Below, piece after piece: positions 29,023 through 58,315 of a DNA stretch of 60,948 nucleotides. The position numbers and the translations under genes are program-made. The notes beneath the pieces were generated by a model. The model searched no databases. It saw only the letters and a program-made list of their open reading frames with translations, and was not told the DNA's origin. The DNA comes from Verrucomicrobiota bacterium (GTDB lineage: Bacteria; Verrucomicrobiota; Verrucomicrobiia; Limisphaerales; CANJSG01), in NCBI GenBank assembly GCA_038209745.1, contig JBBQXJ010000018.1, positions 1-60,948 of the forward strand. Reading direction: 5' to 3'. Numbering within the stretch: the stretch's first letter is position 1; each line of letters starts with the position of its first letter.

Positions 29023-32000
29023 ATGATCGAGATCCCGAAGGCCTACGAGCCCCAGTCCGTTGAATCGAAGTGGTATGAGTTCTGGGACCAGAACGGCTGC
29101 TTCACCGCAGATCCCGCCCGCGTATCCGACGCCCGCCCGGCCTATTCCATCGTCATCCCTCCGCCCAACGTCACCGGCGTCCTCACCCTCGGCCACGTCC
29201 TGAACAACACGATCCAGGACATCCTCGCCCGGAAGGCCCGCATGGACGGCAAGGAGGTCCTCTGGCTCCCCGGCACCGACCACGCCGGCATCGCCACCCA
29301 GAACGTCGTCGAGAAGACCCTGAAGAAGGCCGGCGAAATCAAGCACCGCGACGACCTCGGCCGCGAGGCGCTCGTGGCGCGCATCTGGGAGTGGAAGGAG
29401 AAATACGGCGGCATCATCCTCAAGCAGCTTCGCGCGCTCGGCGCCTCCTGTGACTGGACCCGCACCCGCTTCACCATGGACCCGGAGTATTCCCGCTGCG
29501 TCCAGAAGGTCTTCGTCGATCTCTACAAGAAGGGCCTGATCTACCGCGGCAAACGCATGGTCAACTGGTGCCCCGGCTCGCTCACCGCGTTGTCCGACGA
29601 GGAAGTGACCATGAAGGAGCAGAAGGGCTTCATGTACTATTTCCGCGTGGAAGTGGTGGAGCTAGTGGCCCAGCCGGCCTCGGCTGTTGACCCTGCGGGC
29701 GGGGGGGGGCTCAGCACGGACCCAGGCGAGGGCGCCTGTGCCACTAGCCAAACCCTAGCCATCAAGCCCACGGGCATCTTCCTCACCATCGCCACCACCC
29801 GTCCGGAGACCATCCCGGCCGACACCGCCGTGGCGGTGAATCCCAAGGACCCACGCTACCAGCACCTCATCGGCAAACACGTCATCAAGGCGCTGCCACT
29901 GGATGTGCCGAAGGAATTGCGCGTCATCCCGATCATCGCGGATGAACACGTGGACTTCGAGTTCGGCACCGGCGTGCTGAAGGTCACGCCTGCGCACGAC
30001 AAGGCGGACTACGAGATCGGCCTGCGGCACAAGCTGCCGGTCATCGACGTGCTCACGCCGGACGGAAAGATGACGGCCGAAGCCGGCGCCGATCTGGCCG
30101 GACTGGACCGCTTCGTGGCACGCAAGAAATCGGCGGAACTGTTGGAAGCCGCCGGCGCGTTGGAAAAGGCCGAGCCCTACACGAACAACGTGGGTTTCAG
30201 CGAACGCGCCGATGTGCCCATCGAACCGCGCCTGAGCGAGCAATGGTTCCTCAAGTATCCCAGCGTGGAGGCGAGCAAGGCGTGCGTGGTCTCGGGAACG
30301 GGGAGCACAGGCGCCCCGCCTGTTGCCGACCGCGCCCTCGCGGTCGGCGCGGGAGCCGCGCAGGCGGACGGAGCATCGGTTGTCGGAGCGCGTGCCGGAG
30401 TCGAAGGCGGGGCGCCGGGGACGGCGCCCGGGGCGGGCGCGGTCCCCGGCGCGGATGCGATGCGGTTCTATCCGGATCGCTGGGCCAAGGTCTATGACCA
30501 CTGGATGGGCGGCATCCAGGACTGGTGCATCAGCCGCCAGCTCTGGTGGGGGCACCGGATTCCGGTGTGGACGTTGCCGCTACACGTCTCAGGAAATGAA
30601 GTCGCCCAGCAATTGAGAGACTATTTCAAGGAGTGGGGCATCCCAAGTGAGTATGTGTTCATTGAGGTTATCCAATCCAAACCAGACTGCGGAGATACGA
30701 TTCGCTTTCTGACGAGCAGTGATGAGGCCGACGCAGCCTCAGCGAAACTCAACAGCTTTTTTCAGTTCGGTAAGTTTGACGCTTCGCTCCACGAGGGATT
30801 CCCGACGGCGCACGCCAAAGATTTGGCGAGAGCAATAATGGATGGGCCTGCCGCACATCAGGCGACCCAAGACCCCGACGTCCTGGACACTTGGTTCAGC
30901 TCCTGGCTCTGGCCGTTCGCCACGATGGGCTGGACGGGCGACAAATCCCAAGACTCCAAGAACCCAACCCTCCAGGCGTTCTACCCCACGACCGATCTCG
31001 TCACCGGGCCGGACATCATCTTCTTCTGGGTCGCCCGCATGATCATGGCCGGCTACGAGTGGATGGGCGATCTGCCGTTCCGGAACGTCTATTTCACCGG
31101 CATCATCCGCGACAAACAGGGCCGCAAGATGTCGAAGTCGCTCGGCAACTCGCCCGACCCGCTCGATCTCATTTCCCAGTATGGCGCCGACGCGCTGCGC
31201 TTCGGCGTGATGCGCGCCGCGCCGCTCGGCCAGGACGTGCTCTTCGACGAACAGACCGTCGAACTGGGTCGCAACTTCTGCAACAAGCTCTGGAACGCCT
31301 GCCGCTTCCGCCAGATGCAGGGCGGCGCAGGCCTAGTGGCCCAGCCGCCCTCGGCTGAATTGGTAGTGGGGCAGACGCCTTCGTCTGCCTCGGTCCAACA
31401 GGCGCCCCGGCCTGTTGACCCTGAGAATGGAACAGCCGGGGGCGCCTGTGCCACTACGTCGACCGGCGACGACGTCTGCGGCGAGATCGATCCCACGCTC
31501 CTCACCTCGGACGACAAGTGGATCCTGCTCCGGCTCGACCAGGCCATCCGCGAAGTCACCCAGGCCTTCGCCGATTACAAGTTCAGCGACGCCACGGCCA
31601 CGCTCTACCGCTTCTTCTGGAGCGAGTATTGCGACTGGTATGTCGAGGCTTCGAAGGCCGCGTTCTACGGCACGGACGACACCCTCAAGGCCAACAAGCT
31701 GGCGGTGATCGACTTCGTCCTCGGCCATCTGCTGCGCGTCTTCCATCCGTTCCTGCCCTTCATCACCGAAGAGCTGTGGCACAGCATGGGATTCTCCAAG
31801 GAAATGCCCGAAAGCCAGGGCGGCAAGACCATCATGTTCGCCGCGTGGCCCAAGCCTTTCACCGACGAAGAGAAGAGCTACTTCCAGCTGGACGACGCGG
31901 CCGACACGATCGCCCAGGCGAAATACGATCTCGTGGTCCTCGCCCGCGCGCTCAAGCGCGACTGCAACATCGATCCTGCCAAGCGGGTGAAGTTCGTCGT

Positions 32001-50946: not shown

Positions 50947-51600
50947 TTACGCCGTCCGGTCGATCCAGTCGTCCTGGGTTTTCCAGAACCGTTCCACCAC
51001 CGCGACTACTTCGGCCGAATCGATTTGGCGGAAGAGGTCGGCCAGGATTTCACGGCTGCGATCCGTGCCGGCCGGACCGCGTTGTATCAGGCGACCGATG
51101 AGATGCGTCGCGCGACGGACATCCCCGCTGGCTTCGTCGGCGGAGGCCAGGCCCGCGGAGGCGATGGCGGCCTGAATGTCGGACAGAGAGAGCCCTTCCA
51201 ACGCTTCCCGGAAAACCGTCGCCCGGGCCGAACTGTCAAAGCCCGGCGCGCCGAAAACCTCCGACAGCTGGCGGACGAGCGACGCGTCGCCCGTCTCGGG
51301 CAACGGAGTGGGGAAGGGGACTTCGACGGACGGATCGTGAACCGCTGCCACCAGGCCACCGTTCGATCCAGCCGAACGGCCGAGCGTGAACTCCACCGTC
51401 ACGCGGTGTGCGAGTTCGGGATGCGCCACCGCGTCCGAGGCTTCCATGACGCGCCAGGCGCCCGCCTCCAGCACGACCTTCAGTTCCAGCGCCGCACGAT
51501 CCGCCTCCAGCCGCCAGGGTGCGGGCAGGGCGGCGTCGGTCGCGAGCGCGTCGGCGAGGTCGCTGCGTAATTGGGCGAGGGCATCCTTCAGCGGTTGCAT
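50947..51600 (-). CDS. Hypothetical protein
   Basis: Long ORF filling the gap, GC-rich third positions, no recognised motif; start inferred. Confidence 0.6.
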   Translation of the reverse strand: MQPLKDALAQLRSDLADALATDAALPAPWRLEADRAALELKVVLEAGAWRVMEASDAVAHPELAHRVTVEFTLGRSAGSNGGLVAAVHDPSVEVPFPTPLPETGDASLVRQLSEVFGAPGFDSSARATVFREALEGLSLSDIQAAIASAGLASADEASGDVRRATHLIGRLIQRGPAGTDRSREILADLFRQIDSAEVVAVVERFWKTQDDWIDRTA

Positions 51601-51781
51601 GGGACCGAGCCTAGCACGATGGGCCAAGCCGAAGACAACGTGGCGAATTCCCGGTTGGGCCGGTGTGCTTCCGCCGCCCGGCTGCCGCATCAAAGCAAGC
51701 GCGAGGAACACATCGCCCTACCCATCATCCGCCGCCGTTCCGCTTGAACCGGGCGCGCCTCCCGCCAACACTCCGCACCAC

Positions 51782-52579
51782 ATGAACCGCATTGTCGCGC
51801 GCTTCCAGTCGCTCCGTCAGGAGGGGAAGAAGGGTCTCGTCGTCTACCTCGGCGCGGGCGATCCCGACCTCCAGGCCACGGAGGACCTCACCGTCGCCTT
51901 CGACCGGGCCGGCGCCGACGTGGTGGAACTGGGCGTGCCCTTCAGCGATCCGTTGGCCGACGGCATCGTCAACCAGCTCGCCGCCCAGCGCGGGCTCGAA
52001 TCCGGCACCACCCCGCCCAAGGTGCTGGAAACCGTCCGCCGCATCCGCGCCCGCTCGCAGGTGCCGGTCGTGCTCTACGTCTATTTCAACATCCTGCATC
52101 GGCACGGCTTCCAGCGGTTCATCGACGACTGCGCCGCCGCCGGGGTGGACGGTCTGCTGGTGCTGGATCTGCCGCCCGAGGAATCCGAGAACTACGAGGC
52201 CATGATGGCGGCCGCCGGCCTCTGCAACATCTACCTCATGGCCCCCACCACGCCCGAGGCCCGGATGGAGATCATCGCCAAGCGCGCCCGCGGCTTCATC
52301 TACTACGTCTCCCGCGAAGGCGTGACCGGCATGCAGAGCAAGGTGGCCGACACCATCGCGGACATGACCGGCAAGATCCGCGCCCACACCGACCTGCCCA
52401 TCGCCATCGGCTTCGGCATCTCCGATCCCGAACAGGCCAAGGCCGTGTCGCAGTTCGGCGAAGCCGTCGTGGTCGGCAGCGCCATCGTCAACCGCATCGC
52501 CGAACTTGGGAAGAAACCCGAGCTGGTTCCGAGCGTGGCGAGCTTCGTCGAGAGCTTGGCGAAGGGGATCAAGGCGTAG
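51782..52579 (+). CDS. trpA: Tryptophan synthase alpha chain
   Basis: AGDP, ELGVPFSDPLADG, DLPPEE, APTT, YYVS..GVTG, GFGIS, VVVGSA. Confidence 0.97.
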   Translation: MNRIVARFQSLRQEGKKGLVVYLGAGDPDLQATEDLTVAFDRAGADVVELGVPFSDPLADGIVNQLAAQRGLESGTTPPKVLETVRRIRARSQVPVVLYVYFNILHRHGFQRFIDDCAAAGVDGLLVLDLPPEESENYEAMMAAAGLCNIYLMAPTTPEARMEIIAKRARGFIYYVSREGVTGMQSKVADTIADMTGKIRAHTDLPIAIGFGISDPEQAKAVSQFGEAVVVGSAIVNRIAELGKKPELVPSVASFVESLAKGIKA

Positions 52580-52594
52580 CGTGTCGTTCTTCTT

Positions 52595-52695
52595 AACCAC
52601 AGATGAACACAGATAGACACAGATGTTTGACCATGAAGGGCGGCCCCGTCCCTAGCCTTTCCCCCATCTGTGTGAATCTGTGTCCATCTGTGGTT
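52595..52695. repeat. AACCACAGAT-family palindromic element (three 10-mers per arm)
   Basis: aaccacagatgaacacagatagacacagat / atctgtgtgaatctgtgtccatctgtggtt. Confidence 0.9.
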
Positions 52696-52732
52696 GAACC
52701 CCTTTCCCTCCTTCCGATTTAACTCCGACCTT

Positions 52733-52846
52733 ATGGCGACCAACAGAACCACCAAGCCGTGCTCCGCGCAGAAGAGTCTCGCTGTCGCCAGTGCCCAGCG
52801 TGGGGGCTTCGTCGAGAGCCTCGCCAAGGGAATCAAGACAGCCTAG
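52733..52846 (+). other. Chimeric 37-aa mini-ORF: manC-like 5' end fused to trpA-like 3' end
   Basis: MATNRTTKPCSAQK..GFVESLAKGIKTA*, versus ManC MATKKSPKPTSAKN and TrpA SFVESLAKGIKA*. Confidence 0.8.
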
Positions 52847-52855
52847 CTTCCCTCC

Positions 52856-53101
52856 ATGAACGCGACCGTCACCTTGGAAGTGCCCGAAGAAGCCCTCCGG
52901 CTCTTCGGCGGCGACCGTTTCGGCGAGGAGATGTTGGAGGCGGCGGTGGTCCGTTGGTTTGAGGAAGGACGTCTGAGCCAAGGGCAGGCGGGGCATCTCC
53001 TGAAACTTACGCGGGGCGAGTTTTTCGACGTTTTGGAACGCCACCAGGTGTCTCCCGTTCAACTGGACGAAGCGGAGCTGGAAGCCGAATTGCGCGGATG
53101 A
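52856..53101 (+). CDS. UPF0175 family putative antitoxin
   Basis: 81 aa; F..GRLSQGQA..L....R.EF...L motif; ATGA overlap with the next gene. Confidence 0.85.
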   Translation: MNATVTLEVPEEALRLFGGDRFGEEMLEAAVVRWFEEGRLSQGQAGHLLKLTRGEFFDVLERHQVSPVQLDEAELEAELRG

Positions 53102-53586
53102 CCGACCACTGGGTCATGAACGCCTCGCCGGTGATCCTGCTCTCCCGAGTGGGGCTCATCGGCTTGGTTCCATCCCTTTGTCGCAAGCTTTCCATTCCAT
53201 CCGGGGTCATCGCCGAGGTTTCCCGTGGCGTGGCGGCGGATGCAGGCCGAACCTGGCTTCAAGCCAAGGGCAGCGCCTACATCGTTTCGGTCCCGGCTCT
53301 TTCCCCGGAAATGACCGGTTGGAACGGAGGCCCCGGCGAGGCCGAGGTGATTTCATACGCACTCCAGCAAGGCGGTGCCTCCGTCGTGCTGGATGACTTG
53401 GCGGCTCGACGCATGGCCCGACGTCTTGGGCTGCCACTCATCGGATCGGTCGGCGTGATCCTGCGCGCCAAGGAGCAGGGACTTGTCCCCAAGGTGCGAC
53501 CCTTCCTGGAGAAGCTCCGTGGCGGTGGCGGCTACCTGAGCGAGAACATCCTCCAGCAAGCTTTGAAGAAAGCCGGCGAACTCTGA
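53098..53586 (+). CDS. DUF3368 / PIN-like putative toxin
   Basis: V.NASP.I.L, GE.E.I..A, LDD..AR..A..LG...GS.G...AK..G, terminal AGE. Confidence 0.87.
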   Translation: MTDHWVMNASPVILLSRVGLIGLVPSLCRKLSIPSGVIAEVSRGVAADAGRTWLQAKGSAYIVSVPALSPEMTGWNGGPGEAEVISYALQQGGASVVLDDLAARRMARRLGLPLIGSVGVILRAKEQGLVPKVRPFLEKLRGGGGYLSENILQQALKKAGEL

Positions 53587-53596
53587 GATTTTTCCT

Positions 53597-54745
53597 ATGG
53601 CGACCAAGAAATCCCCCAAACCCACCTCCGCAAAGAACGATCGCTACGTCATCATCATGGCCGGCGGCAAAGGCGAACGTTTCTGGCCCGTGAGCCGCAA
53701 CGCCACGCCCAAGCAGCTCATCACCCTCCTCGGCAAACGCTCCTTCCTCCAGCAGGCCGTCGACCGCTGCCTCGCCCTCGTTCCCGCGAAGAACATTCTC
53801 ATCATCACCAACGCCGTCCAGGCCAAGGCCGTGGCCAAGCAGCTGCCCAAGCTGCCCAAGGCCAACATCGTCGCCGAACCCGTCGGCCGCGACACCTGCG
53901 CCGCCGTGGCGTTGGGCGCGGCCATCGTGGGCGCGCGTTCCACCACCGCTGTCATGGCCGTGCTGCCCGCCGACCACGTCATTCCCGAGGAGAAGAAATT
54001 CCAGCAGGTGCTGAACGACGCCTTCGACCTCGCGTCGCGCGGCCAGGTGATGGTCACCATCGGCATCAAGCCCACCGAACCCGCCACCGGCTACGGCTAC
54101 ATCCACACCGGCAAACTGCTGCCCGCGCCCGAAGGCGTGAAGCCCTACAAGACGAAGTTCTTCAAGGCCGAGCGCTTCGTGGAAAAACCGGACCTGGAGA
54201 AGGCCGAGGAATACGTCGGCAGCGGCGAGTATCGTTGGAACGCCGGCATGTTCATCTGGTCCTTCGTCACCGTCACCCAGGGCCTCCAGGCGCACGTGCC
54301 CGAATTGGCCGAAGCCTGCCAACGCTGGTTCAAGGTTGCCAACCAGCCCGTCAAACTGGCCAAGCTGTTGGCCAAGGAATATCCGACCATCAAGAAGATC
54401 TCCGTGGACTTCGCCCTGATGGAAAAGGCCCACAACGTGGTCTGCGCCGACGGCTCCTTCGCCTGGGACGATCTCGGTGCCTGGACCGCGCTCCCGCGCC
54501 ACATGAAAGCCGACGCCGAAGGCAACTGCGCCCAGGGCGAACTGGTCCACATCGACGCCGCCCGCAACATCGTCTTCGACACCCGGACGAAGAACCGCAC
54601 CCCGATCTGCCTTGTGGGGGTGAAGGACTCGATCATCGTCCAGACCGACGACGCGACCCTCGTCGCCGCCAAGAGCGAAGCCCAGAAGATCAAGCAGCTC
54701 GTCGCCAAGCTCACCGCCGACAAGAAGCTCTCGAAGCTGGTGTGA
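53597..54745 (+). CDS. manC: Mannose-1-phosphate guanylyltransferase
   Basis: IMAGG.GERFWP.SR...PKQ, EP.GRDT, PADH, TGYGYI, FVEKP, WNAGMF, IS.DFA.MEK, W.DLG.W. Confidence 0.94.
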   Translation: MATKKSPKPTSAKNDRYVIIMAGGKGERFWPVSRNATPKQLITLLGKRSFLQQAVDRCLALVPAKNILIITNAVQAKAVAKQLPKLPKANIVAEPVGRDTCAAVALGAAIVGARSTTAVMAVLPADHVIPEEKKFQQVLNDAFDLASRGQVMVTIGIKPTEPATGYGYIHTGKLLPAPEGVKPYKTKFFKAERFVEKPDLEKAEEYVGSGEYRWNAGMFIWSFVTVTQGLQAHVPELAEACQRWFKVANQPVKLAKLLAKEYPTIKKISVDFALMEKAHNVVCADGSFAWDDLGAWTALPRHMKADAEGNCAQGELVHIDAARNIVFDTRTKNRTPICLVGVKDSIIVQTDDATLVAAKSEAQKIKQLVAKLTADKKLSKLV

Positions 54746-54794
54746 GCGGGTCGAGGCGGGGCGAAGCCCCCTTTGAACCGAACACCGAAGTTCA

Positions 54795-54922
54795 AACCGC
54801 CAATCTTCGCCAATAGAGGCAAATCTGAAGCCCATTGTGTCGAAGAAACCGTGACCGGTTTTGTGCGGACGGCGCGACCGAAAACCTTTGTTATCAGAGT
54901 GGATCAGCGCCTATCAGCGGTT
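54795..54922. repeat. Degenerate 10-mer-arm palindrome (AACCGC type), related in architecture to the AACCACAGAT family
   Basis: aaccgccaatcttcgccaat ... atcagcgcctatcagcggtt, between convergent genes. Confidence 0.55.
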
Positions 54923-54991
54923 CAAAATCGGTTTCCAGGTTGAAGGGTGACCCCCTATCCGGACCGCTGCACTGGCAGTCGATTCGAGGAA

Positions 54992-55546
54992 CTAGGCCGC
55001 CTTGACCAGGTGGCGCTTGTTCCGTCCGAGCATCGCGACCGCCAGACAACCGACCGCAGCCAAGCTGGCGGTGGTGGGTTCCGGGACCGGGCCGACGGCA
55101 ATTCCAGGCAAACCGATTAGACTGGCCGGAACGGTTGGAGGCTTAGCTGAATTGTCACCAAGAAGAACGCTGATGTTCGAAGTGGATCCCTTGCTCGAAG
55201 CCGTTTCGTAGTTGGGAGCATCCTTCCAGGCCCGCATTTGAACGAGAGCCGTCGATCCGCCGGGGAGGCTGGTGGTGACAATGGAGGCCACCACATAGCC
55301 AACCCCCGCATCGGACCGGAGGGCCACCGGGGAACCGGCCGCAACCAGCGAACCAGCATTGGCTCCGACATAGAGCTGGACAAAATAACCGTCCGCACCG
55401 GACACCCCGATTCCGGTGTCGGCGTAATAGACCTTCGAGTCCACCGATCCGGTGATCTTGGTGGCGAAGTTGATGGTCCCTTGGGAGAAGCCCGAGAAGG
55501 ATGCGAGCGTGGCGAGGGCCAGCAGGAATGATTTGAACGAGTTCAT
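54992..55546 (-). CDS. PEP-CTERM sorting domain protein
   Basis: Signal peptide, QGTINF, QMRAW, terminal VPEPTT + TM + basic tail. Confidence 0.9.
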   Translation of the reverse strand: MNSFKSFLLALATLASFSGFSQGTINFATKITGSVDSKVYYADTGIGVSGADGYFVQLYVGANAGSLVAAGSPVALRSDAGVGYVVASIVTTSLPGGSTALVQMRAWKDAPNYETASSKGSTSNISVLLGDNSAKPPTVPASLIGLPGIAVGPVPEPTTASLAAVGCLAVAMLGRNKRHLVKAA

Positions 55547-56104: not shown

Positions 56105-58315
56105 CTACTCCAGGACGAAACTCGCGTCGGAGCGCAGCCGGACGGCGTCGGGCATTTTCTGCGGATTGAGCCGGACGAGGACGCGGTGTTTGCCGGCGGC
56201 GAGGTCGGTCTTGGAATCGCCGGCATCACCGATCTTTTTCCCGTCGACCCAAAGTTCCGCAGCGGGCGCTTCGAGCTGGAACTTCACTGGGCCGGCTTGG
56301 GCGAGGTTGATCTCGGTGGCGGCGCAGATGGCCAAGGTGCCGACCCACGCATCGCGCCGGGTCGATTCTTCGATCAACGGGCGGGTGAGCTGGCCGTTGA
56401 CGAGGGAGAAGGTGTCGCTCCAAGGGCTACCAGTGAGCGGGGCGTCCCAGATGAGGTGGCTGCGGCCGTTTTGCTGGTCGGTGTGGGACAGGGCGAAGAG
56501 GCGCCACTTGCGGGCCACGCCGCCTTTCGACGCGTCGAAGTCGCCGGGTTTGCCGAGGCGAGAGAGGAAGGCGAAGAGGTCGAGCTGTTCCTGCGCGTTT
56601 AGGGCGTCGAGCAGGCCGGAGGGCATGAGCGACACGGCGGACTGTTCGCGCTTGGCCACGTCCGCTTTGGGCACGGACTGTTCCTGGCCGGCGGCGTTCC
56701 GGAGGACGATCTCCTGCGAGGTTTCGCGGGCGAGCGTTCCGCTGAATTCGTCGCCGCCCTTGGTCGTTAGAATGAGCGCGGAGTAGCCCTCCTTGATCTT
56801 GGCGTTGGGCAGGAGGACGGATTCGACGAGGTAGTCGATGGGCGCGCTGGCGCCGATGCTGGTCATGTCGGGGCCGACCTTGCCGCCGGCGCCGCCAATG
56901 GCGTGGCAGCTCGTGCAGGCGAGATTGGCGCGGCGGAAGACCATTTCGCCACGATGCGGATCACCCGTGGCGGCGGCCTTGGCGGCGAGATCCTTGATGA
57001 GCTGCGCGGTGAAGGTCTGGGTGTCGGCGGACAGGCCGGACGACTTGGCCAAGGCAGTGACGAGCTCGAGATCGCTGCGGCCGCCTTCGCGGGCGACGCG
57101 CATGCCGGCGCGGGCGGCGGCTTGGGGAAGGCCGCTCTCGGGCAGGGCTTCGGCAATGGCCTTGCCGGCACCTTTCACGCTCAGCACAGAACGCCAGAAA
57201 TCCTGGGCCTGGGTCTCGTCGTTGAGCGAACGGGCGACATCGACGATGGAGGGGACGGCGTGTCCGAGATTGAGCGCGGCAAACGAGGCGACGGCTTGCC
57301 GACGGACATCGGCCGGCTGGTCGGCGGCGCTGAGTTTGGCCAGCGCATCCAACGCGCCGGGGCCGCCGATGGAACGGAGGGTGTCGAAGGCGGCCGACCG
57401 GGTCGCTGCGGACGAATTCGGTGCGCCCGCGAGCTGGACGATCTTCGCGAAGTGCGGACCGACATCCTTCCATTCACCGGCGAGCTTCAGGGCTTCGATC
57501 CGGACAGGCTCGGAAGCGGAGTCGAAGAGTTGGCCGAGGCCGGTGGTGGAGCCGGCCGGTTTGAGTTTGCGGATGCGGGTGGCGTCGGTCAGGGAACGAA
57601 GCGCGCGCGCGGCGGCGGTGTCGCTGAAGCCACCGTTGAGGGCCTGGGTGAAAAGCGTGCTCAGTTCGGTCGGGGTGCCGGCGGCGCCGATGAGCTCGAT
57701 CCAAGGGCCGGAGCCTTCGCGGTCGAGCGCGGCTTTGGAGGCGAACTGGCCGAGGACGCGGCTGGCTTGTTCGGGTCGGATGGAACGGAGGGCGAACTCG
57801 AGCTGCTTCTCGTGGCCGGCGGGTTTCCAGGACCCGTCCTGGAGCGCGGCGATCCAGGGTTCCGACAGGTCGTTGATCGTGAGCCAGAGCGCGTAGTCGA
57901 GCGTCGGATCCATGGGCTGGTCGAGCACGCCCAGCGCGACGGCGGCGGATTCGGCGGTGGGGATCTTGGCGAGGGCGCGGAGGGCTTCGAGCCGGACCTT
58001 GGGCGAGGTGTCGTGGACCAACACGGACAAGGTGTCGAGGCGGGCATCTCGGGGCTCGGCGGCGGAGCCGGTAAGCGCGATCGCGAGCGTTAGTGACAGT
58101 GCGAGACGGGGAACAAGGCTAGCCCTTTTCAACCACAGATGGACACAGATGAACACAGATCCGAAGCGACGGACCCCCGCTTGGATGGAACTCATGGGCA
58201 GTCTCGAATGGGTTCCAGGATACGCCTGCGCTTTCCCCATCGGTGCGAATCTGTGTCCATCTGTGGTTTCAGACGGGGTGTGCCGGCTCAGAGGTTTCAT
58301 GGGTGAGGTGGACAT
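56105..58315 (-). CDS. HEAT-repeat/c-type cytochrome protein (C-terminal half of a PVC-type heme-binding protein)
   Basis: GD..RG..VF, CTSCH heme motif, GPD...IG, P...IK.GY, S.MP.GL; has its own hydrophobic leader. Confidence 0.88.
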   Translation of the reverse strand: MSTSPMKPLSRHTPSETTDGHRFAPMGKAQAYPGTHSRLPMSSIQAGVRRFGSVFICVHLWLKRASLVPRLALSLTLAIALTGSAAEPRDARLDTLSVLVHDTSPKVRLEALRALAKIPTAESAAVALGVLDQPMDPTLDYALWLTINDLSEPWIAALQDGSWKPAGHEKQLEFALRSIRPEQASRVLGQFASKAALDREGSGPWIELIGAAGTPTELSTLFTQALNGGFSDTAAARALRSLTDATRIRKLKPAGSTTGLGQLFDSASEPVRIEALKLAGEWKDVGPHFAKIVQLAGAPNSSAATRSAAFDTLRSIGGPGALDALAKLSAADQPADVRRQAVASFAALNLGHAVPSIVDVARSLNDETQAQDFWRSVLSVKGAGKAIAEALPESGLPQAAARAGMRVAREGGRSDLELVTALAKSSGLSADTQTFTAQLIKDLAAKAAATGDPHRGEMVFRRANLACTSCHAIGGAGGKVGPDMTSIGASAPIDYLVESVLLPNAKIKEGYSALILTTKGGDEFSGTLARETSQEIVLRNAAGQEQSVPKADVAKREQSAVSLMPSGLLDALNAQEQLDLFAFLSRLGKPGDFDASKGGVARKWRLFALSHTDQQNGRSHLIWDAPLTGSPWSDTFSLVNGQLTRPLIEESTRRDAWVGTLAICAATEINLAQAGPVKFQLEAPAAELWVDGKKIGDAGDSKTDLAAGKHRVLVRLNPQKMPDAVRLRSDASFVLE
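58131..58268. repeat. AACCACAGAT-family element of 138 bp (46 codons), in frame in the leader of 56105-58315
   Basis: aaccacagatggacacagatgaacacagat / atcggtgcgaatctgtgtccatctgtggtt. Confidence 0.9.

Follow-up and report, generated by a model that had tools for sequence, protein, structure and literature searches.

The locus considered here raises the question of how the beginning of one conserved gene came to stand directly in front of the end of another. The window, i.e., the whole stretch of 60,948 nucleotides (nt) that was analysed, is contig JBBQXJ010000018.1 of the assembly GCA_038209745.1 of a Verrucomicrobiota bacterium belonging to Limisphaerales, and between its trpA and manC genes lies a fusion of a diverged manC start (manC') and a diverged trpA end ('trpA). 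On the plus strand the order is trpA, a hairpin, a native manC leader, the manC' start, the 'trpA end, a predicted toxin-antitoxin (TA) pair of the UPF0175 and DUF3368 families, and manC. We consider it fairly probable that the fusion is a recombination scar, the new joint of a duplication between two alleles, by which a hairpin version and a TA version of one and the same slot were placed in tandem. The hairpin version would comprise a trpA end, the hairpin, the leader and a manC start, the TA version a trpA end, the UPF0175/DUF3368 pair and a manC start, and the head of manC from the former would have been joined to the tail of trpA from the latter.

Both boundary segments of the slot are present twice in direct orientation, and the extra manC start is placed directly before the extra trpA end. 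The repeat finder returned the manC start as 52732-52773 against 53596-53637 (42 nt, 76% identity) and the trpA end as 52806-52837 against 52542-52573 (32 nt, 88%); a further part of the trpA end, 52791-52803 against 52526-52538 (13 nt, 85%), is one base out of register, so the scar copy has lost 1 nt. The local alignment scores were 30 (48 columns) for the trpA-end copy and 22 for the manC-start copy, and neither was reached in any of 1000 mononucleotide shuffles or in any of the 300 sequences of a second control. The statement of the preliminary description that a unit of trpA end, spacer and manC start occurs twice with different cargo is thus confirmed by repeats and alignments, and the manC-start likeness, for which shuffled controls had been proposed there, lies clearly above them. 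The peptide FVESLAKGIK is encoded by both trpA-end copies with only synonymous differences inside it, and the fused frame is open over 37 codons, both as first described; upstream of this peptide the 1-nt deletion shifts the frame of the scar copy relative to trpA. The extent of the manC-like part is the point that has to be refined, for the likeness is clear over about 42 nt and the next approximately 15 nt up to the seam are weakly manC-like. In the multiple alignments of the seam region, weak manC likeness continues to about 52786 and weak trpA likeness begins at about 52785.

The slot was compared between the genome of this window (G000) and its congeners; of the six same-genus genomes, five (G001, G003, G004, G005 and G006) yielded the locus. 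The slot of G006 is empty, with about 25 nt from the trpA stop to the manC ATG. G003 contains trpA, a hairpin, a leader and manC. In G001, which is scar-free, the TA pair is separated from trpA by 9 nt and from manC by 10 nt. In G005 the order is trpA, an open reading frame (ORF) that we call Y, and manC, and in G004 trpA is followed by an intact antitoxin gene starting 9 nt past the trpA stop, about 42-45 nt of the toxin gene, the 390-codon ORF Y, and manC. The Y protein of G005 matched no Pfam family. The hairpin-only, TA-only and other-cargo alleles predicted in the preliminary description therefore exist, in G003, G001 and G005, respectively, and the empty slot of G006 and the antitoxin-plus-Y slot of G004 are added to them. 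The G004 junction (L013, 1552-1900), in which the toxin remnant is joined to the upstream region of Y and the antitoxin is orphaned, is a second and different one-sided outcome; no trpA-end remnant was found there between the truncated toxin and Y.

Each half of the G000 structure matches a real allele, the hairpin half that of G003 and the TA half those of G001 and G004, which supports the two-allele reading. Over 52693-52732 the leader copy is identical to the G003 leader at 34 of 38 aligned bases and to the empty-slot leader of G006 at 28 of 37, and the sequence in front of the working manC of G000 and of G001 shows no relation to it. The Leu and Ala codons of trpA-end copy 1, the copy in use, are those of G005, and the codons of copy 2 are those of G001, G004 and G006. 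The tail of copy 2 points to the TA allele as well: its last 15 nt including the stop codon are those of the true trpA end of G004, and the bases from there to the antitoxin start are nearly identical. Cargos, tails and synonymous states thus match different relatives, as a heteroallelic origin predicts; the overall identities are flat, and later exchange could mimic the pattern. Such exchange does occur at this locus, because a tract of trpA (alignment columns 421-660, window 52200-52440) is 98-99% identical to G005, as compared to 90-97% for the other congeners, and looks like a recent import by homologous recombination. Exchange between lineages supports a two-allele origin and at the same time weakens the argument from allele differences.

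Several observations weigh against this reading. Percent identity failed to assign the halves of the scar to lineages: against the six genomes the 'trpA half is nearly flat, with 45-49 matches over 57-62 aligned bases, and so is the manC' half, with 37-43 matches over 49-56. The lineage assignment proposed earlier for the trpA ends and the manC start therefore rests on indels, tails and the leader, and it holds for the codons, tails and leader that match different relatives and not for overall identity. The manC' fragment has the longer N-terminal form (+6 nt) common to G000, G001 and G004, which differs from the form of G003, the sole hairpin-type relative, and the donor or ancestor is outside the sampled genomes. 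The joint itself is blurred by decay, and no clean microhomology can be demonstrated; what is seen there is a patchy, G+C-rich similarity between the parental manC and trpA sequences. By our count on the alignment the manC' half seems more decayed than the 'trpA half, a difference not expected if both halves arose in one event and then decayed neutrally at an equal rate. In G000 the neighbours of the trpA-manC block also differ from those common to the five congeners, so the local history is more complex than one event; DNA likeness to these congeners starts 3 nt before the trpA ATG (51779) and ends at about the manC stop (54746-54763), and the G000 counterparts of their neighbour genes lie inside the contigs C34, C105, C55, C45 and C93 at 71-86% identity. 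Finally, among the contigs of the sequencing runs X1, X2 and X15 described below, no single one bridges trpA across the hairpin to the scar.

The features of the locus are collected in Table 1. The DNA identity to the five congeners is 88-90% for trpA and 87-89% for manC. The two small genes between them are adjacent and co-directional, the UPF0175 stop overlaps the DUF3368 start, and both Pfam matches are above the curated cut-offs. A scan of 52300-53800 with an E. coli-type consensus, which says little for this organism, returned no sigma-70 promoters and no intrinsic terminators.

Table 1. Features of the trpA-manC locus, in window coordinates.
Feature	Position	Strand	Basis or remark
trpA (tryptophan synthase alpha), functional copy	51782-52579	+	Pfam Trp_syntA, E 1.2e-81
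trpA 3' end, copy 1 (in use)	52526-52579	+	repeat families D2 and D11
Hairpin of dispersed palindromic repeat family	52595-52695	.	101 nt; arms 31 nt
Copy of native manC leader	52696-52732	+	37 nt, then ATG; alignment to leaders of relatives
manC' 5' fragment, dead copy of manC start	52733-52773	+	76% over 42 nt against 53596-53637
Seam manC'/'trpA	52774-52790	+	multiple alignments; exact joint blurred
'trpA 3' end, copy 2 (displaced)	52791-52846	+	own stop codon 52844-52846
37-codon junction ORF	52733-52846	+	open frame from manC-type ATG to trpA-type stop
UPF0175 antitoxin gene	52856-53101	+	Pfam E 8.1e-19, 67.5 bits (cut-off 27.9)
DUF3368 (COG2405, PIN-like) toxin gene	53098-53586	+	Pfam E 6.3e-13, 48.8 bits (cut-off 27.3)
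manC (mannose-1-phosphate guanylyltransferase-like), functional	53597-54745	+	Pfam NTP_transferase 6.8e-43, ManC_GMP_beta-helix 6.4e-13

The two-allele duplication would require one illegitimate join, of manC at about +45 to +60 with trpA at about -56, together with homologous exchange in the common flanks, and a site-specific recombinase would be unnecessary. The simplest route (route a) would be single-crossover, Campbell-type entry of a circularised fragment of the other allele, reaching from the trpA 3' end to the manC 5' end, the crossover falling in the approximately 56-nt trpA end or in the approximately 45-60-nt manC start. An unequal exchange with incoming linear DNA would lead to an equal result; such DNA may have been held by homology at one side and joined illegitimately at its other side, by homology-facilitated illegitimate recombination (route b). 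Finally, a duplication of the interval in situ may have been followed by a swap of the cargo in one unit (route c). In experiments on one-sided recombination in E. coli (PMC3240628), 56 of 60 clones gave a PCR product diagnostic of duplication, which was attributed to single crossover of a circular molecule; the single-crossover duplications of the homologous segment given there span 109-950 bp, and true one-sided illegitimate events are expected to delete target DNA. At the trpA-manC locus about 56 nt of trpA, the target next to the anchor, are duplicated, contrary to the classical one-sided expectation. The E. coli duplication result hence favours route a over the classical form of route b. 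The earlier proposal that a circularised or duplicated fragment was integrated by homology agrees with the duplication topology and with this E. coli result; a circular and a linear intermediate are indistinguishable from sequence, and either would be a matter of inference.

Among the other explanations, an in situ origin survives best, and we regard it as unlikely. Here the interval from trpA -56 to manC +45/60 would have been duplicated in tandem by an illegitimate sister-strand join, and the content of one unit would have been swapped later by homologous recombination. The topology matches a tandem-duplication joint exactly, homologous exchange goes on at the locus, and duplication within a lineage does occur in this genome, since at a displaced gene end on contig C75 the two copies resemble one another more than they do the gene ends of the five congeners. 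However, two events are needed, the second of them on a flank of about 45-60 nt, the intermediate with two identical units of 0.3-0.9 kb would collapse easily, and the synonymous states and tails of the two trpA ends match different relatives.

A further explanation, which we find very improbable, is that the trpA 3' end served as an attachment site and that an element, decayed or mobilised in trans, had the repeats as its left and right sites. The genome was screened for similar structures by a per-contig blastn self-comparison, in which 199 direct-repeat pairs 60-6000 nt apart were kept and then filtered for pairs in which a long ORF has one copy at its edge and a short ORF contains the other. 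The filter returned five loci including trpA-manC, and at three of the remaining loci a 3' end is displaced behind a small cargo, namely an ORF6N gene (C56), a ParE-like pair (C75) and a PIN gene (C39). These displaced ends flanking small cargos fit an attachment-site origin, as does the second end copy with a similar left edge that three congeners have at the C56 gene, which we take to be purB. But the DNA between the trpA-end repeats is not foreign, as it consists of a hairpin of the genome's own family, a native leader and a manC start, a composition for which an attachment site does not account, and the duplicate occurs in G000 only. Recombinase and transposase families were absent from the 15 ORFs scanned with Pfam over 42.5-60.9 kb, so the earlier statement that no integrase or insertion sequence is nearby holds for these ORFs, and no recombinase family was found in the scanned slot-cargo ORFs (Y of G005, five of G035 and one of G029, the last two genomes lying outside the genus). 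As for the genome scan for downstream-start/upstream-end fusions suggested in the preliminary description, it yielded these five filtered loci, and no recognisable start of a downstream gene was seen at the three loci with displaced ends.

These three loci merit a short description of their own. On C56 the last approximately 90 nt of a 444-aa gene, the presumed purB, occur twice (31111-31196 and 31811-31896; L032) at 90.7% identity, with an ORF6N-domain gene between the copies and a low-GC ORF after the second. Two end copies of the 444-aa gene are also present in G003 (L041) and G004 (L045), with similar left edges and other spacing, so this gene end looks like a recurrent hot spot and is possibly site-specific. 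On C75 (5955-6001 and 6510-6556; L031) a ParE-like toxin gene and another small ORF are followed by a second copy of the end of a 396-aa gene. On the minus strand of C39 (973-1058 and 163-248; L033) the end of a 701-aa gene is duplicated, at 90.7% identity over 86 nt, behind a PIN-domain gene, upstream of which a possible candidate antitoxin gene is located.

It is also highly improbable that the seam is an assembly chimera, in which strains with a hairpin allele and a TA allele were wrongly chained or a false join was made across the dispersed hairpin. The source genome is indeed a draft of 140 contigs with 2.6% estimated contamination. Among the sequencing runs listed, 20 from 19 studies hold at least half of the sampled words of 52300-53900, and contigs of four of them (X1, X2, X15 and X4) were compared with the window. 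The X1 contig (2748 nt) covers 52671-54000 with 13 differences, the X2 contig (2909 nt) covers the same interval with 14, and the X15 contig (420 nt) covers 52669-53088 with 12; these runs come from different studies, and each contig is about 1-3% different from the window and has its own variants. The succession of hairpin arm, leader, manC', 'trpA and TA genes lies within single contigs in all three runs and continues to manC in X1 and X2. A mis-assembly of two strains, the danger named in the preliminary description, is thereby countered for the seam, which stands inside contigs of three independent runs, the bridge across the hairpin to trpA not being included in one contig. Contigs built with short k-mers break at the hairpin, which is a dispersed repeat, and X4, the run with zero differences, has no contig over 52749-52870; both points would fit a chimera, and such a hole proves nothing. 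Against a chimera, the depth agrees on either side of the hairpin (trpA-side versus scar-side contig, 36 versus 32.8 in X1 and 19.7 versus 20.3 in X2), and the joint of a simple single allele was not reported in any of the four runs. Moreover, the halves of the scar are diverged and have indels, so they are no copies of the working genes, and a bubble in the assembly graph gives no path from a manC start to a trpA end. An exact search of metagenome contigs with a 22-nt seam pattern gave no match, which is uninformative, as records of the same or very near genomes may be left out.

The least credible alternative, one that we hardly entertain, is that the 37-codon ORF is a functional small gene, such as a leader peptide or a third TA component: its frame does run from a manC-type ATG with a native leader to a trpA-type stop 9 nt before the antitoxin, but its product belongs to no Pfam family, the ORF is absent from the five congeners holding the locus and from every TA-bearing relative, the upstream part of its trpA-derived piece is frame-shifted relative to trpA by the 1-nt deletion, and its variants do not look like those of a constrained gene. 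Among the variants listed, with codon positions calculated from the coordinates, those of the junction ORF in X1 and X2 (52781, 52782 and 52805) are all at first or second codon positions (none of the three at a third position), as compared to eight of eight at third positions in the antitoxin gene across the runs; in the toxin gene three of four are at third positions. The ORF looks unconstrained and the TA genes constrained, and the junction ORF is probably a non-functional scar and no gene.

The preliminary description took the scar to show how the TA pair had entered the trpA-manC gap, and this part is not supported, since the pair occupies these junctions scar-free in G001, in part in G004, and in G011, a genome from another family of the order. 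In G011 the UPF0175/DUF3368 pair lies in the same slot, 9 nt past the trpA stop and with a short gap before manC, and the toxin end and the bases after it resemble those of G000; the amino acid identities between G011 and the window are 53% for the antitoxin, 48% for the toxin, 75% for TrpA and 79% for ManC. G000 and G001 share 85.8% DNA identity in the antitoxin gene and 82.6% in the toxin gene, which is no higher than in trpA (88.9%) or manC (flanks 87-89%) and therefore argues against a recent import of the pair. In the manC tree, rooted with three other families, the other five congeners group together to the exclusion of G000 (97% support). For trpA the tree has only 42-55% support, so the polarity rests on the manC tree and the outgroup state. 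By parsimony the ancestor more likely carried the TA pair, which would have been lost or replaced later in G003, G005 and G006, and the TA pair is probably the older resident. The hairpin segment is accordingly more likely the newcomer and the TA version the resident, although the mirror case of a hairpin-type recipient and an incoming TA allele gives an identical product. If the TA version was resident, the added DNA would run from trpA-end copy 1 through the hairpin and leader to manC', and the trpA end in the scar would be the old, once functional end before the antitoxin; the 56 nt of trpA kept in this way would preserve the native upstream sequence of the antitoxin gene.

Beyond the genus, 24 further families have their trpA and manC matches no more than about 2 kb apart on a single contig, and with the five congeners this makes trpA and manC adjacent in at least 29 of 40 relatives among the matches listed. 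By our estimate most gaps beyond the genus are about 0-260 nt, and larger cargo is present in three genomes, G011, G029 and G035. Internal copies of the flanks occur in one of the seven cargo-bearing slots, that of G000; G001, G004, G005, G011, G029 and G035 score within shuffles. Stacking that leaves a scar is thus unusual as a route of cargo change, and scarless exchange via the conserved flanks fits the other six slots. For the same reason, the recombinase-free stacking of cassettes envisaged earlier agrees with the lack of a recombinase and is weak as a general route, with one scarred slot in seven. Two slot contents outside the genus may be described in addition. The cargo of G035 (L025), approximately 1.6 kb, consists of several small ORFs in low-GC DNA, including one for a DUF2283 protein on the opposite strand, and the apparent gap in G036 (L026) and G034 (L028) is a long Lys/Ala/Pro-rich N-terminal extension of manC and contains no cargo.

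The hairpin belongs to a dispersed repeat family. Its arms (52595-52625 and 52665-52695) are 31 nt long and 90% complementary, the fold of 52580-52735 has -55 kcal/mol with a z value of -7.6, and none of 200 shuffles was equally stable. Strict matches to the arm number 27 on 17 contigs of G000, many related copies are present in the relatives, and G003 independently carries a hairpin of the same family directly after trpA. The single match of an Rfam scan of 51000-55500, to a microRNA family, falls on the hairpin; with 29 bits (E 0.015) it stays below the gathering score of 100, and we take it as chance. Elsewhere in the window, a repeat arm at about 58115-58165 is translated inside the N-terminal extension of a 736-aa ORF (56105-58315, minus strand), which suggests that the true start of this ORF is further downstream.

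Several known systems resemble this locus. As in tandem-duplication and Campbell-type joints, both flanks are duplicated in direct order and the downstream start is fused to the upstream end; unlike in those, the two units differ in content and in synonymous states, the homology is only about 45-60 nt, and no vector or replicon is involved. For the Rhs and type VI secretion system effector-immunity loci, Kirchberger et al. (2017; PMC5361080) describe the displacement of 3' (C-terminal) ends, which leaves orphan ends, and homology-facilitated illegitimate recombination is proposed for it. The likeness is that a new end arrives with downstream DNA, that the old end and its companions are pushed downstream and kept, and that the process is integrase-free and stackable; in G000 the orphan trpA 3' end indeed lies downstream of a trpA with a replacement end. 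The differences are that a housekeeping gene pair is concerned, that the topology is fixed by the inclusion of the downstream gene's start, that one stacked unit is a TA pair, and that the target is duplicated here in place of the deletion expected of the classical one-sided mechanism. Integrative elements may also sit in the 3' end of a conserved gene and leave a pseudo-end, as e14 does in icd of E. coli. Such elements likewise keep a working end with a diverged duplicate end downstream, whereas here no integrase was found and the intervening DNA is chromosomal sequence native to a relative.

The TA pair itself is typical of UPF0175/DUF3368 type II pairs and nothing about it is unusual, its toxin role being predicted from the family. 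PMC5499597 treats COG2405 (DUF3368) as a PIN-like putative TA toxin with UPF0175 as its sole partner, and reports UPF0175 only next to COG2405. A literature search on UPF0175 and DUF3368, which was not aimed at trpA-manC slots, returned no paper on this locus. The class of mechanism is already known, and the manC'-'trpA fusion is a readable and familiar recombination scar and no new mobile system.

One idea goes further, and we offer it as a quite unlikely one, namely that the addictive TA pair biased the exchange of alleles, that the manC'-'trpA seam is the footprint of that filter, and that the promoter or operator of the pair lies inside the 'trpA piece. Clean replacement of the slot by an allele lacking the pair would remove the antitoxin and kill the recombinant, and the rare recombinant that survived would have retained the pair because its join to the incoming allele lay upstream of the native 56-nt leader of the antitoxin. 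That the 'trpA piece seems better preserved than the manC' piece would then be due to a TA promoter or operator within the 'trpA piece. If this were true, TA pairs would turn replacement into stacking at conserved slots.

Under the two-allele reading, the scar documents the merging of alleles and not the arrival of a TA pair, and it records the topology of one natural recombination between alternative slot alleles in an uncultured sediment bacterium. It also leads to the idea, open to test, that an addictive gene pair promotes stacking rather than replacement. The trpA-manC gap with its varied small cargos is a tidy natural system for the turnover of accessory genes without mobile-element enzymes.

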